Of a stretch of 64,000 bases of DNA, positions 37,956 to 42,002 are shown piece after piece. The notes under the pieces were generated by a model that was not told where the DNA came from, ran no database searches, and saw only the letters and a program-made list of their open reading frames with translations. Every line of letters begins with the position of its first letter. Position 1 is the first letter of the stretch. Source of the stretch: an uncultured Chloroflexia bacterium (lineage in GTDB: Bacteria; Chloroflexota; Limnocylindria; Limnocylindrales; CSP1-4); the NCBI GenBank assembly GCA_963833225.1, contig CAWHXD010000008.1:32001-96000 (forward strand). The letters run 5' to 3'. The position numbers were made by a program, and so were the translations under genes.

Positions 37956-38891
37956 ATGACGCTCGCCCCGCTCGTCGTCATCGGCGGGCCGACCGCCACC
38001 GGCAAGACCGGGCTGGCCATCGGGATCGCTGAGCAGCTGCTGGCCCAGGGCATCGCGGCCGAGGTCGTCTCCGCGGATTCACGACAGGTGTACCGCGGCC
38101 TCGACATCGGCACGGCGAAGGCGACGGCCGAGGAGCGGGCGCGGGTCGTCCACCACGGCATCGATCTCGTCGACCCGGACCAGGCGTACTCGGTCGCCGA
38201 GTTCCGGACCCACGCGCTCGGCGCCCTCGCGGCGCTGGGAGCCCGCGGCGGGATCGGAATCCTCGCGGGGGGGACCGGCTTCTGGCTGCGCGCGGTCATG
38301 GCCGGCATCGACACCGACGCGCTTGCGTCCGATCCACGGGTCCGGCGCGGGATCGAGGCCATGCTGGCATCCGATGGGGTCGAGGCGGTCGCGTCGCGGC
38401 TGACCGCGATGGCACCCGCGCTGGCGGCGCGCACCGACCTCCGGAACCCCCGGCGCGTGGTCCGTGCGCTGGAGATCGCCACGCTCCGGGGTGATGCCCC
38501 GCTGCCGGACCGCGTCGGCTACCCGGCGCCGGTCCTGGGCCTGCAGCTCATCGTGGACCCGGCGGAGCACCATCGCCGGATCCTCCACCGGGCGCGCGCC
38601 CAGTTCGAGGCCGGGCTGGTCGAGGAGGCGAGACGCCTGCGCGAGCGCTACGACCCGGCGCTGCCGGCCTTCTCGGCGATCGGCTACCGCGAGAGCTGGG
38701 CGGTGCTCGACGGCGAGTGCACGCCCGAGGAGGCGATCGCCCGCGACGCCCGGCGCAACATCCAGTTCGCCAAGCGCCAGCGCACGTGGTTCCGCTCGGA
38801 GCCCGCGCTCGCGGTGGTGGACGCGACCGATGACCCGCAGGGCGAGGTGACGGGGGCGGTGGCGGCGTTCCTCGAACGCCTGCACGGCTGA
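37956..38891 (+). CDS. miaA: tRNA dimethylallyltransferase
   Basis: GPTATGKT, SADSRQVYRGLDIGTAK, AIGY and FAKRQRTWFR. Confidence 0.97.
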   Translation: MTLAPLVVIGGPTATGKTGLAIGIAEQLLAQGIAAEVVSADSRQVYRGLDIGTAKATAEERARVVHHGIDLVDPDQAYSVAEFRTHALGALAALGARGGIGILAGGTGFWLRAVMAGIDTDALASDPRVRRGIEAMLASDGVEAVASRLTAMAPALAARTDLRNPRRVVRALEIATLRGDAPLPDRVGYPAPVLGLQLIVDPAEHHRRILHRARAQFEAGLVEEARRLRERYDPALPAFSAIGYRESWAVLDGECTPEEAIARDARRNIQFAKRQRTWFRSEPALAVVDATDDPQGEVTGAVAAFLERLHG

Positions 38892-38940
38892 CGCCGCGGG
38901 TGCAGGGGGATGCGGGCGACGAGCCGGTATGCTGGCCGCG

Positions 38941-40257
38941 ATGAGCCCCCGAGACACGATCGACCTCGCGCCCCACGTCGAGAAGGCGTTCCTCGTCGCC
39001 GTGGACACCGGTGATGACGCCGGGTGGACGGCCGAGGACAGCCTGACCGAGCTGGCCGCGCTGGCCGCCACGGCCGGTGCCGATGTCGTGGGCGCCGAGT
39101 GGCAGAACCGCCGCCATGTCGACCCCAACTGGTACGTGGGCAAGGGCAAGGCCGAGGACCTGCTCCAGGCGAAGTCCGAGACCGGCTTCGACATCGTGGT
39201 GGCGGACGACGAGCTCAGCCCGGCGCAGCAGAAGACCCTGGAATCGCTGCTCAACGTCAAGGTCATCGATCGCAGCCGGCTGATCCTCGACATCTTCGCG
39301 CTTCACGCCCAGACGCACGAGGGGCGGCTCCAGGTGGAGCTTGCCCAGCTCGAGTACCAGCTGCCGCGCCTGACCCGGCTGTGGACGCACCTGTCGCGCA
39401 CCGGCGGTGGCATCGGGACCCGCGGACCCGGCGAGTCGCAGCTCGAGACGGACCGCCGCCTGATCCGGGAGCGGATCAAGAAGATGAAGGCCAAGGTGGA
39501 CGATGTCCGCCAGCAGCGGCAGACCACGGCCCGTGGTCGAGACCGCCGGCTGTACCCCACGGTGGCCATCGTGGGCTACACCAACGCCGGCAAGTCGACG
39601 CTCCTCAACGCGCTCGTTGGCTCCGTCGTGGCCAAGGCCGAGGACAAGCTGTTCGCGACCCTTGATCCCACCTCGCGCCAGGTCAAGCTGGGCGACGGCC
39701 AGACCGCCATCGTCACCGACACCGTCGGCTTCATCCACAAGCTGCCCCACCAGCTGGTGGATGCCTTCCGGGCGACCCTCGAGGAGGTCACCCGCGCCGA
39801 TGTCCTGGTCGAGGTGGTCGACGCCTCCGATGCCCATGCCGCGGAGCACCGAGCGACGGTCCAGGTCGTGCTCGACGAGCTGGGTGCCGGGGACAAGCCG
39901 CGGCTGACGGCATTCAACAAGGCGGACCTCCTGTTCCCGGGCACCGATGGCGATCGGCCGGCCCCCGCCGTCGCGGGCTCGGTGCTGGTCTCGGCAGCGA
40001 CGGGGTTCGGGCTCGACACGCTGCGCGCCGAGATCGCGGCGCTGCTCGCGTCGCTGTGGGAACCGGTGGACGTCGATGTCCCGTACGCGGCGGGAGAGCT
40101 GCTGGCCCGCGTCCGCGAGCGTGGCACCGTGGACCTCGAGTACGGCGAGCGGTCCGTGAAGGTCCGCGGTCGAATGGCCCCGTCGCTCGCCGGCGAGCTG
40201 CGCGCCGTCGCGGACCGCTGGGCGGAGACCCTGGCCGAGGAAGGCGTGGGGTCGTGA
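38941..40257 (+). CDS. hflX: GTPase HflX
   Basis: LILDIFA, RGPGE, GYTNAGKST, LFATLD, DTVGF and NKAD. Confidence 0.97.
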   Translation: MSPRDTIDLAPHVEKAFLVAVDTGDDAGWTAEDSLTELAALAATAGADVVGAEWQNRRHVDPNWYVGKGKAEDLLQAKSETGFDIVVADDELSPAQQKTLESLLNVKVIDRSRLILDIFALHAQTHEGRLQVELAQLEYQLPRLTRLWTHLSRTGGGIGTRGPGESQLETDRRLIRERIKKMKAKVDDVRQQRQTTARGRDRRLYPTVAIVGYTNAGKSTLLNALVGSVVAKAEDKLFATLDPTSRQVKLGDGQTAIVTDTVGFIHKLPHQLVDAFRATLEEVTRADVLVEVVDASDAHAAEHRATVQVVLDELGAGDKPRLTAFNKADLLFPGTDGDRPAPAVAGSVLVSAATGFGLDTLRAEIAALLASLWEPVDVDVPYAAGELLARVRERGTVDLEYGERSVKVRGRMAPSLAGELRAVADRWAETLAEEGVGS

Positions 40258-40853
40258 GCCCGCACCGCGGCGCACCCGTCCGTCGAGCGGGGACCGGCCG
40301 CCTGCCGGGAGGTCACCGGCTGACCTGGACCGTCGCCGACGGGCGCCGCGGGCGTCGGTGGCGCGCCACGACCACGAGTGCCGATGGCCGGCTGGTCGGG
40401 GCCCTGCTCGTGGAGGTTGGCACCGACGGAGCCCTGCGCAAGATCGAGGTGGCGTCACCGGCCGGCCTGCTGACGCTCCACCCGGAGGTGGGGGAGGGGA
40501 CCCTGCACGGCAACGTGGTCCGTCCCGCCGGGATCAGCCACGTCACCCTGCCGTGGACGGCACGGCACCTGCTGTTTGCCGGCAGCTCGCCCGTGACCGG
40601 GGCCGTTGCCGCGGCGCAGCTGGAACGCGAGCTCCCGGCAGGGCAGGGGAGCGCGATCCCGGCGGTCGAGATCGCGGACGACCTCTCGATCCGGCAGGCC
40701 ACCTGGCGCGTCGCCCGCGTGGGCGAGCGGCGCTGGCGCCTGCTGGCCGCCGACGGTGGTCCATCGGTGGCCGTCACGCTTGACGACGATGGCATCCCGA
40801 CCGCTCTCGAGGACGCGGAGACCTGGCCGCTGGAGGTCGATCAACCGGCCTGA
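40254..40853 (+). CDS. Hypothetical beta-rich protein
   Basis: GTGA overlap with the hflX stop and coding-like codon usage; no recognised motif. Confidence 0.6.
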   Translation: MSPHRGAPVRRAGTGRLPGGHRLTWTVADGRRGRRWRATTTSADGRLVGALLVEVGTDGALRKIEVASPAGLLTLHPEVGEGTLHGNVVRPAGISHVTLPWTARHLLFAGSSPVTGAVAAAQLERELPAGQGSAIPAVEIADDLSIRQATWRVARVGERRWRLLAADGGPSVAVTLDDDGIPTALEDAETWPLEVDQPA

Positions 40854-40863
40854 GCCACCCGCG

Positions 40864-40924
40864 CGTGGACAACCTGTGGACAAGCGCGCGATTTCCGAAC
40901 GCGACCCCTGCAAGTCGTGGATAA
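40864..40924 (-). promoter_or_regulatory. Cluster of three DnaA-box-like 9-mers
   Basis: Minus strand TTGTCCACG (40864-72), TTGTCCACA (40875-83) and TTATCCACG (40916-24). Confidence 0.65.
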
Positions 40925-40966
40925 CCCCGTTGCCGCGGCGCCCGGTCGCCGGATATTGTGGGTCTT

Positions 40967-41135
40967 GCCCGAAGGGGCGGACGAACCAGCGACGGACCCG
41001 CAGGTGCTTGCACAGGCGGGGACGAGACGAAACCGCAGGTGCTTGCACAGGCGGGGACGAAACGGGAACGCGGTTGCTTGCAGCAGCGGACTCGACGCCG
41101 GGGAGAAAGTTCCTTCGGGCGTTTCGCTGTCTCCC
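40967..41135 (+). ncRNA. Putative structured RNA with three CUUG-tetraloop hairpins
   Basis: TTGCCG-18nt-TATTGT promoter, repeated hairpins with covariation, and 9-bp complementarity between the 5' and 3' ends. Confidence 0.6.
40998..41090 (+). repeat. 28-bp direct repeat x2 plus a degenerate third copy
   Basis: CCGCAGGTGCTTGCACAGGCGGGGACGA at 40998 and 41033; CGCGGTTGCTTGCAGCAGCGGA at 41069. Confidence 0.95.
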
Positions 41136-41174
41136 GCGCTGACCGTCCCAGGGCGCACGACGAGGGTCCCGGCG

Positions 41175-42002
41175 GTGAGGGCACGAGAACTCCGGCAGGC
41201 GGTCGGCCGTCCCGGGTTCACCGCTGCCCTCGGGCCCGCGGTGCTGCTGGTGGGTGCGCTCGTCCCGTCCCTCCGGCCCCCGACCGCCCTGCTCATCGTG
41301 TTCGGCTGGTTGATCCTCCTGCGGGTGGTGCGATCCCCTGCAGCGGTTGCCTGGGCCGCCGTGCTGCCGCTCGCCGTGGTCCTGGTCTGGCCATGGGTAC
41401 TGGGTGCCGACGTGCCGGTGGGGGATCCGGGCTGCCGTGACCCACTCGCGACCATCGCCGTGCGTCGCGTCGCCGTGGCTGCGGTCGGTCTCGTGCTTGT
41501 TGCCGGCCTTGCCATCATCCATCGCTCCGGGCTGACGGAGCTCGGGCTCCGCCGGCCAACACGGTTCGAGGCCGTCACCTCGGCGGGCGGTGGCGTCGCG
41601 CTTGTCGCGGCGGGCCTGTTCATCGGGCCGGCCATCGCCCGACCGTTCTTCGGCGAGCTCGACTTCCCCGTGCCGGCGGCCGCCCTTGTCCCCGCGGCCG
41701 CGTTCGGCGTCGCGAACGGCGTCCTGGAAGAGGTGCTGTACCGGGGGGCGCTCCAGGCATGGCTCGCGCGAACAGTTCCGATGGCCATCGCGATCGCCAT
41801 CGGGGCCGTGGCGTTCGGCATCGTGCACGTTGGTCCCGAGGTCGTCGACCTCGTCCCCGTGCACGTCGCGCTGCTGACGGGCGCAGGGCTCCTCGCCGGG
41901 CTGGCGCGGTGGCGTTTCGGGTCACTGTGGATCCCGATCGGCTTCCACGTCGGTGCGGACGTCGCCCTCTACGTCGGGCTGGCCTGCCGATCTGCCGGCT
42001 GA
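41175..42002 (+). CDS. CPBP (Abi/CAAX) family intramembrane metalloprotease
   Basis: EEVLYRG, FGIVH and HVGAD motifs with multiple TM segments; start position uncertain. Confidence 0.85.
   Translation: MRARELRQAVGRPGFTAALGPAVLLVGALVPSLRPPTALLIVFGWLILLRVVRSPAAVAWAAVLPLAVVLVWPWVLGADVPVGDPGCRDPLATIAVRRVAVAAVGLVLVAGLAIIHRSGLTELGLRRPTRFEAVTSAGGGVALVAAGLFIGPAIARPFFGELDFPVPAAALVPAAAFGVANGVLEEVLYRGALQAWLARTVPMAIAIAIGAVAFGIVHVGPEVVDLVPVHVALLTGAGLLAGLARWRFGSLWIPIGFHVGADVALYVGLACRSAG

Follow-up and report, generated by a model that had tools for sequence, protein, structure and literature searches.

What is encoded between hflX and a CPBP/Rce1-like protease gene in an uncultured Chloroflexia bacterium of the class Limnocylindria (GTDB order Limnocylindrales, family CSP1-4)? 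The stretch analysed, hereafter the window, comprises 64 000 nucleotides (GenBank assembly GCA_963833225.1, contig CAWHXD010000008.1, positions 32 001 to 96 000 of the forward strand), and coordinates refer to it unless stated otherwise. An initial annotation made from the sequence had proposed a structured RNA at this locus with three CUUG-tetraloop hairpins, paired ends and its own promoter, acting as a protein-binding sponge or as a leader of the protease gene. On balance, our analysis favours reading positions 40864-41132 as a gene belonging to a small-RNA family not catalogued before, which would be controlled by DnaA, would end at its own closing stem and would be capable of serving as a leader. 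Limnocylindria, a class of Chloroflexota formerly called Ellin6529, are abundant in soils and sediments.

A hairpin RNA between hflX and a protease gene

The candidate region lies 3' of miaA (37956-38891) and hflX (38929-40257) and 5' of the CPBP/Rce1-like protease gene. The two promoter hexamers proposed initially are present with the expected spacing, and the parts of the element, from promoter to tail, are the following.

40930-40935, plus strand: -35 hexamer TTGCCG, 18 nt before the -10 hexamer
40954-40959, plus strand: -10 hexamer TATTGT (putative promoter, span 40930-40959)
40966-41132, plus strand: predicted RNA of ~167 nt with predicted ends, based on covariance model matches, strand asymmetry and fold
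40966-40978, plus strand: 5' strand of the closing stem P1 (RNAalifold; 98% of cells pair in relatives)
40998-41019, plus strand: CUUG hairpin 1 (the homologous hairpin covaries in relatives)
41033-41054, plus strand: CUUG hairpin 2, identical to hairpin 1 (repeat and sequence check)
41069-41088, plus strand: CUUG hairpin 3, divergent (the hairpin that the family model aligns)
41109-41121, plus strand: 3' strand of P1 (RNAalifold and pair counts)
41122-41132, plus strand: U-rich tail TTTCGCTGTCT, presumed termination site (T content after the stem in 115 copies)

The complementarity between the two ends, GCCCGAAGG (40967-75) with CCTTCGGGC (41112-20), proved exact and grows through two G.U pairs to a helix of 13 bp (40966-40978 with 41109-41121). 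A repeat search identified three tandem units of 35 nt (40991-41025; 41026-41060, 94%; 41061-41095, 66%), each with a CUUG hairpin, confirming the description of two identical hairpins at a 35-nt period and a divergent third. The hairpin sequence is unique in the genome save for one chance-level match with three mismatches. In agreement with the predicted strand specificity, the plus strand folded better than shuffled sequences (z = -3.33, none of 200 shuffles as stable), compared with z = -1.29 and 22 of 200 shuffles for the minus strand. The minimum-energy fold of the window copy has hairpins 1 and 2 paired together at -83.7 kcal/mol, with local folding at -78.2 kcal/mol.

The initial annotation had also raised the possibility that the frame from 40917 is translated through the RNA. 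Protein-coding read-through was rejected, as the GC content by codon position shows no coding pattern before 41175 (0.70/0.63/0.74 for 40917-41174 vs 0.81/0.53/0.85 from 41175 on) and length differences between copies are not multiples of three.

Distribution and novelty of the RNA family

Wide conservation within the family was a feature that went beyond the initial annotation. BLAST searches with the element gave matches in 93 of 201 genomes of the same bacterial family; in relatives, the 5' third and the 3' third gave separate matches lying side by side. The usual form is ~110 nt long with a single central hairpin, as in 21 of the 38 copies extracted first, and two-hairpin forms measure 139-177 nt. 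The form with three hairpins is confined to the window's genome, where the apical hairpin has been triplicated locally.

A covariance model was built from 20 single-hairpin copies. The genome sets searched with it are samples, and absence means not found among the genomes searched; four genomes flagged unpublished are counted only in the BLAST tally (201) and in the family-level and class-level model tallies. In the family-level sample, which comprised 151 genomes from the window's family, the model matched 149, covering 48 of 49 genera with one to seven matches per genome, and 107 of 108 in the order-level sample. At class level, matches were obtained in 43 of 44 genomes of this family and in 40 of 50 of a second family. 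No match was obtained in the sister family with small genomes of ~1.1 Mb (0/42 in the order-level and 0/6 in the class-level sample), in two other families of the class-level sample (0/49 and 0/1) or in other Chloroflexota families of the phylum-level sample (0/136). Scanning public genomes with a sequence pattern yielded at least 120 stretches; among the 80 listed, 78 were from Chloroflexota, mostly Candidatus Limnocylindria/Limnocylindrales. Within the set of genomes searched, only two families, both in the uncultured class Limnocylindria, have the RNA.

In the window's own genome (G000) the model match at G000:C8:73038-73140 corresponds to window positions 41038-41140, and two further copies were found at G000:C19:161359-161458 and G000:C19:919923-920121, both on the minus strand. 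The internal domain differs in one of these, which also has a GACTGATTCC tail; in the other, ~215 nt are inserted between the conserved stem halves. Both lie behind the same three DnaA-box-like sites as the window copy (see below). A subtype of the RNA, conserved across the two families (L020:2424-2533, L028:2233-2342, L223 and L229), carries a direct repeat, CATCTAGTGAT, flanking the apical hairpin. Whether copies share a chromosomal position, for instance the terminus, was checked in five single-contig genomes; as their distances from dnaA range over ~0.11-0.50 of the genome length and no position is common to them, the idea was rejected.

Scans against Rfam 15 bore out the expectation that the RNA is not a catalogued one. 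At the gathering threshold the element had no match, at E <= 10 the region 40700-41400 gave two chance-level matches, both outside the element, and at E <= 1 eight loci with typical copies gave none. A literature search of partial coverage found no description of this RNA and no publication on the RNA biology of Limnocylindria. We consider it very likely that this is a real conserved RNA family absent from Rfam.

Conserved fold and covariation

The consensus calculated by RNAalifold consists of a 14-bp closing stem (P1), a 3-bp helix and an apical hairpin. Structural conservation in relatives, on which the initial proposal had been made to depend, was found in pair counts over 120 distinct forward-strand copies: standard pairs occupy 95.4% of cells, compared with 37.6-51.1% when the partners are slid, both partners vary in 12 of 24 pairs, and there are 182 compensated cells vs 11-37 in the slid controls, all in an alignment that was fitted to the model and is thereby biased towards the structure. 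The apical CUUG hairpin homologous to the window hairpins covaries in relatives. Tetraloop swaps from CUUG to GNRA (GCGA/GUGA in two copies) and exchanges of the small helix between CCGG/CCGG and CUAG/CUAG were seen among copies; both are classic RNA signatures. P1 is nearly invariant in sequence, including its tandem G.U pairs, with one position occupied by A-U in 70 copies, G.U in 21 and G-C in 15 and unpaired in 13. In the second family the stem is formed by GUCCCGGAGGAG... with ...GGUUCCUUCGGGAC and has an extra U-A pair and an A-U in place of G.U. This version retains the long-range helix and not the local hairpin GCCC-GAAG-GGGC, an alternative pairing suggested initially. The RNA is a long irregular hairpin closed by a nearly invariant end-to-end stem of 13-14 bp and carrying a covarying apical CUUG hairpin.

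A dispersed repeat, a miniature mobile element or the terminator of an upstream gene, lacking an RNA function of its own, would also be multi-copy, sometimes in tandem, and could show GC-rich inverted ends followed by T-rich sequence. We regard this as exceedingly unlikely in view of the low copy number of 1-7 per genome and of searches of plasmid and phage collections, which gave no match to the element. Moreover, only one strand can form the invariant G.U pairs, model scores are strand-asymmetric (45-117 bits forward and 25-40 bits reverse at the same loci), the promoter stands at a fixed distance, and the recurrence of PALP and Rce1-like neighbours across genera suggests inherited positions.

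The initial annotation had likened the element to CsrB/RsmZ-type RNAs, with which it shares repeated hairpins and, as predicted, a promoter of its own and a terminator, and had proposed that three hairpins with GGA linkers act as a multivalent protein sponge. The window copy does have three similar hairpins and purine-rich GGA/GGACG linkers, but the linkers are not conserved in relatives, a single hairpin is the usual form and is also the form that the model describes, and the loops of the copies compared are CUUG or GNRA and never GGA. CsrA (PF02599) had no match in the window's genome, which at 86% completeness leaves its absence unproven, and neither Hfq nor TROVE genes were found there. 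The structured RNA with a putative promoter of its own was supported; its function as a sponge was not, and we judge it highly improbable.

DnaA-box-like sites upstream of the putative promoter

Three sites upstream of the promoter had not been part of the initial annotation.

40864-40872, plus strand: DnaA-box-like site 1, CGTGGACAA, 8/9 to the reverse complement of TTATCCACA/TTGTCCACA
40875-40883, plus strand: DnaA-box-like site 2, TGTGGACAA (word GTGGACAA, enriched 21:0 in the family's dnaA-downstream regions)
40916-40924, plus strand: DnaA-box-like site 3, CGTGGATAA, 5 nt 5' of the -35 hexamer (word GTGGATAA, enriched 16:0 in the presumed origin regions)

Several 9-mers at the locus (40864, 40875 and 40916) lie within one or two mismatches of TTATCCACA. 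The sites share the word GTGGAYAA, which occurs at 110 sites in the window's genome and forms clusters of three only at the three model matches. The spacing is conserved among copies, with 11 nt from the start of box 1 to the start of box 2 (47 of 52 copies), 41-42 nt from box 2 to box 3 (83 of 92) and 36-38 nt from box 3 to the -10 hexamer (90 of 103), box 3 being placed just 5' of a -35-like TTGnnn. In 100 of 103 copies, the first G of P1 follows the start of a TAnnnT -10 hexamer by exactly 13 nt. Of 14 second-family copies retrieved, 12 have the same box layout on their 5' side.

The classical DnaA box, TTATCCACA/TTGTCCACA, is the reverse complement of GTGGAYAA-type words (consensus from PMC5043019). 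In 27 genomes of the family, words in the 700 nt 3' of dnaA were compared with those in the dnaA coding sequence; the most enriched were TGTGGAC (33:0), TGTGGAT (25:0), GTGGACAA (21:0) and GTGGATAA (16:0), and DnaA-trio-like repeats of GATGATGA were enriched 19:0. The dnaA-dnaN spacer of the window's own genome holds degenerate GTGGAY boxes. Spacers of this kind with DnaA boxes and GATGATGA repeats (L193-L222; G000:C6:93800-94420) are probably the replication origin of this lineage, as judged from their motifs.

The RNA could be real and its GTGGAYAA boxes yet be read by a lineage-specific transcription factor, their likeness to origin boxes being coincidental or due to a shared half-site. The promoter-proximal box begins with C instead of T, and the arrangement as direct repeats with an 11-nt periodicity beside a -35 hexamer is also that of response-regulator sites. 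DnaA oligomer arrays, however, consist of 9-mers 2 nt apart, as here, and no words are more enriched than these 7- and 8-mers in the dnaA-dnaN regions of the 27 genomes, where the GATGATGA repeats are enriched as well. The window's genome encodes a single full-length DnaA, C-terminal DNA-binding domain included. We therefore consider another factor unlikely, and the motifs argue that the promoter is probably one controlled through DnaA boxes.

A second DnaA-like regulator was sought and discarded, as the second match to PF00308 is an IstB/IS21 ATPase. An IS21-type element, with an IstB ATPase beside an integrase-core transposase, was noted at G000:C7:19105-21738. Elsewhere in the genome, at G000:C6:30465-30560, TTATCCACA and TTCGTGGACAA boxes stand directly 5' of a promoter-like site, TTGACG-N17-TACCGT; this is the architecture of the RNA promoters with different sequence downstream. 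Two oppositely oriented consensus DnaA boxes were also observed at G000:C8:444248-444283, 5' of a ParA/Soj-like gene identified from its translated N-terminus only.

The 3' end and downstream genes

The 9 nt that follow P1 contain 5.6 T on average (115 distinct copies), where the background T fraction is 0.15. Intrinsic terminators look like this, with U residues after a GC-rich stem, and we lean slightly towards termination at the closing stem. The gene that follows in the window is

41175-42002, plus strand: CPBP/Rce1-like protease gene, likely start GTG 41175 (Pfam Rce1-like, E = 9.6e-16)

Downstream of the 101 evaluable copies (of 107), a gene on the same strand was called in 55 cases, a convergent gene in 24 and no gene in 22. 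In a separate tally, a second copy with its own promoter followed within 1 kb for 22 of the 101 copies. The proteins encoded by 33 same-strand downstream genes fall into 19 Pfam families, of which PALP (8) and Rce1-like (6) recur.

These neighbours bear on the possibility of a mainly cis-acting element, a 5' leader or attenuator, in which stem and U-tract form a conditional terminator or a 5' stabiliser and any short RNA is a by-product. A same-strand position of the neighbour (55 of the 79 copies for which one was called), the recurring PALP (8/33) and Rce1-like (6/33) families and a gap between RNA and start codon that could hardly accommodate a separate promoter are in keeping with this, as is the stem flush with the 5' end, which is how 5' stabilisers look. 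On the other hand, the downstream genes share no common theme across their 19 families. An extra helix around the 3' block (e.g. GGGAGA at 41102 with TCTCCC at 41131), put forward initially as an alternative pairing and convincing by eye in several copies, was rejected, since over 94 copies matched flanks were no better than mismatched ones (-13.4 vs -12.9 kcal/mol; Mann-Whitney p = 0.13), so that the candidate alternative helix of an attenuator gave no signal. A role as leader of the CPBP gene cannot be the general role of the family, because, of 101 copies, 24 are followed by a gene in convergent orientation and 22 by another copy. A mainly cis-acting element therefore appears improbable. 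Where the start codon lies within tens of nucleotides of the RNA 3' end, the RNA must nevertheless also be a 5' leader, and we read the element as a self-contained unit of promoter, RNA and terminator that can double as one.

Expression and points against the proposed gene

Among the sequencing runs searched, in which parts of the element lacking read cover prove nothing, only two held a small share (0.05) of the element's words. Run X1, guessed to be an RNA library, gave contigs from relatives that span the upstream gene and promoter and are uninformative on transcription. Run X2, a metatranscriptome, gave one contig of 65 nt with an exact match to 40998-41060 and nothing on the flanks, a weak hint of expression. 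As it spans the junction of units 1 and 2, the contig independently shows at least two tandem units.

Several observations weigh against a DnaA-controlled gene that ends at its own stem. The X2 contig is the sole RNA evidence and may be contaminating DNA, and the pair counts given above come from an alignment that favours the structure. A simple consensus scan calls no promoter at the window copy, as the hexamers score 8/12, below its threshold, and a simple scan calls no terminator there either; P1, a GC-rich stem of 13-14 bp, is atypical for a terminator in that it encloses ~80-140 nt instead of a loop of 3-8 nt. The first in-frame start codon lies 2-81 nt from the RNA 3' end in 32 of 34 cases, a distance that the picking of the first codon biases short and that fits a leader equally. 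Upstream boxes are missing at L223 and L229, the two of 14 second-family copies that belong to the distinct subtype, and 14 of 106 first-family copies show no box other than box 3. Finally, DnaA binding is deduced from motif identity alone, and another regulator could read GTGGAYAA.

Proposed role and comparison with known systems

In the gene as proposed, DnaA would bind the boxes and set the rate of transcription, so that RNA output would track the state of replication initiation. Transcription would start at or next to the first base of P1, and most transcripts would stop at the stem and U-tract to give a stable hairpin RNA of ~105-170 nt; on read-through, the element would become the 5' leader of the downstream gene, here the CPBP protease gene. 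Because the sequence of P1 is invariant, it suggests a protein partner that may read this helix. More speculatively, and with clearly less confidence than we place in the gene itself, the strongest DnaA-box clusters would drive the hairpin RNA, the putative partner would read its helix, and initiation status would be fed into gene expression or DnaA availability. If true, such a riboregulator coupled to replication, perhaps together with a titration site of the datA kind, would have no described counterpart.

DNA loci outside oriC that titrate or recharge DnaA include datA and DARS of E. coli and the DnaA-box clusters of B. subtilis. Like these, the clusters described here are small, lie outside the origin and consist of consensus DnaA boxes, and they are the best clusters of the genome; unlike them, each is locked at fixed spacing to a promoter and a conserved RNA, whereas clusters of the datA/DARS type are not known to be tied to a structured RNA gene. 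The nearest functional analogy is CcnA of Caulobacter crescentus, reported to be a cell-cycle small RNA under the master regulator CtrA (PMC8959179). Both are small RNAs whose promoters carry sites for a master cell-cycle regulator. CcnA differs in its regulator (CtrA, not DnaA), in phylum and in sequence and structure, which show no likeness; it is reportedly single-copy and base-pairs to known mRNAs, whereas the present RNA family has 1-7 copies per genome.

Bacterial Y RNAs, which associate with Ro/Rsr, resemble the RNA in having their ends paired in a long conserved stem around a variable internal module. The present family has no tRNA-like module and no Rfam match, and TROVE/Ro (PF05731) had no match in the window's genome (86% complete), the neighbours being hflX, an unknown ORF and the CPBP protease gene. 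Type III antitoxin RNAs (ToxI-like) consist of tandem repeats of ~36 nt, a likeness to the tandem 35-nt units of the window copy; these repeats are peculiar to its genome, and relatives mostly have one unit. No ToxN/AbiEii family occurs among the 19 Pfam families of the 33 downstream proteins, and no ToxN-type gene is adjacent at the window locus.

The RNA is found in almost every sampled genome of a bacterial family, in multiple copies, and is wired to what appear to be the best DnaA boxes of the chromosome. It adds a well-supported, covarying family to the catalogue of bacterial RNAs and offers, for bacteria beyond the model phyla, a connection of an RNA regulator with the initiator of replication that can be put to the test. 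As a compact module of promoter and hairpin, its parts are open to in vitro work without culturing the organism.

Other features of the window

An ORF of 265 amino acids (40056-40853, plus strand) lies between hflX and the boxes and overlaps the 3' end of hflX by ~200 nt. It has no Pfam match and a weak codon-position GC pattern (0.82/0.65/0.78); its C-terminal residues appear conserved in the genus. The window's only Rfam match at the gathering threshold is a tRNA gene at 42-115 on the plus strand.
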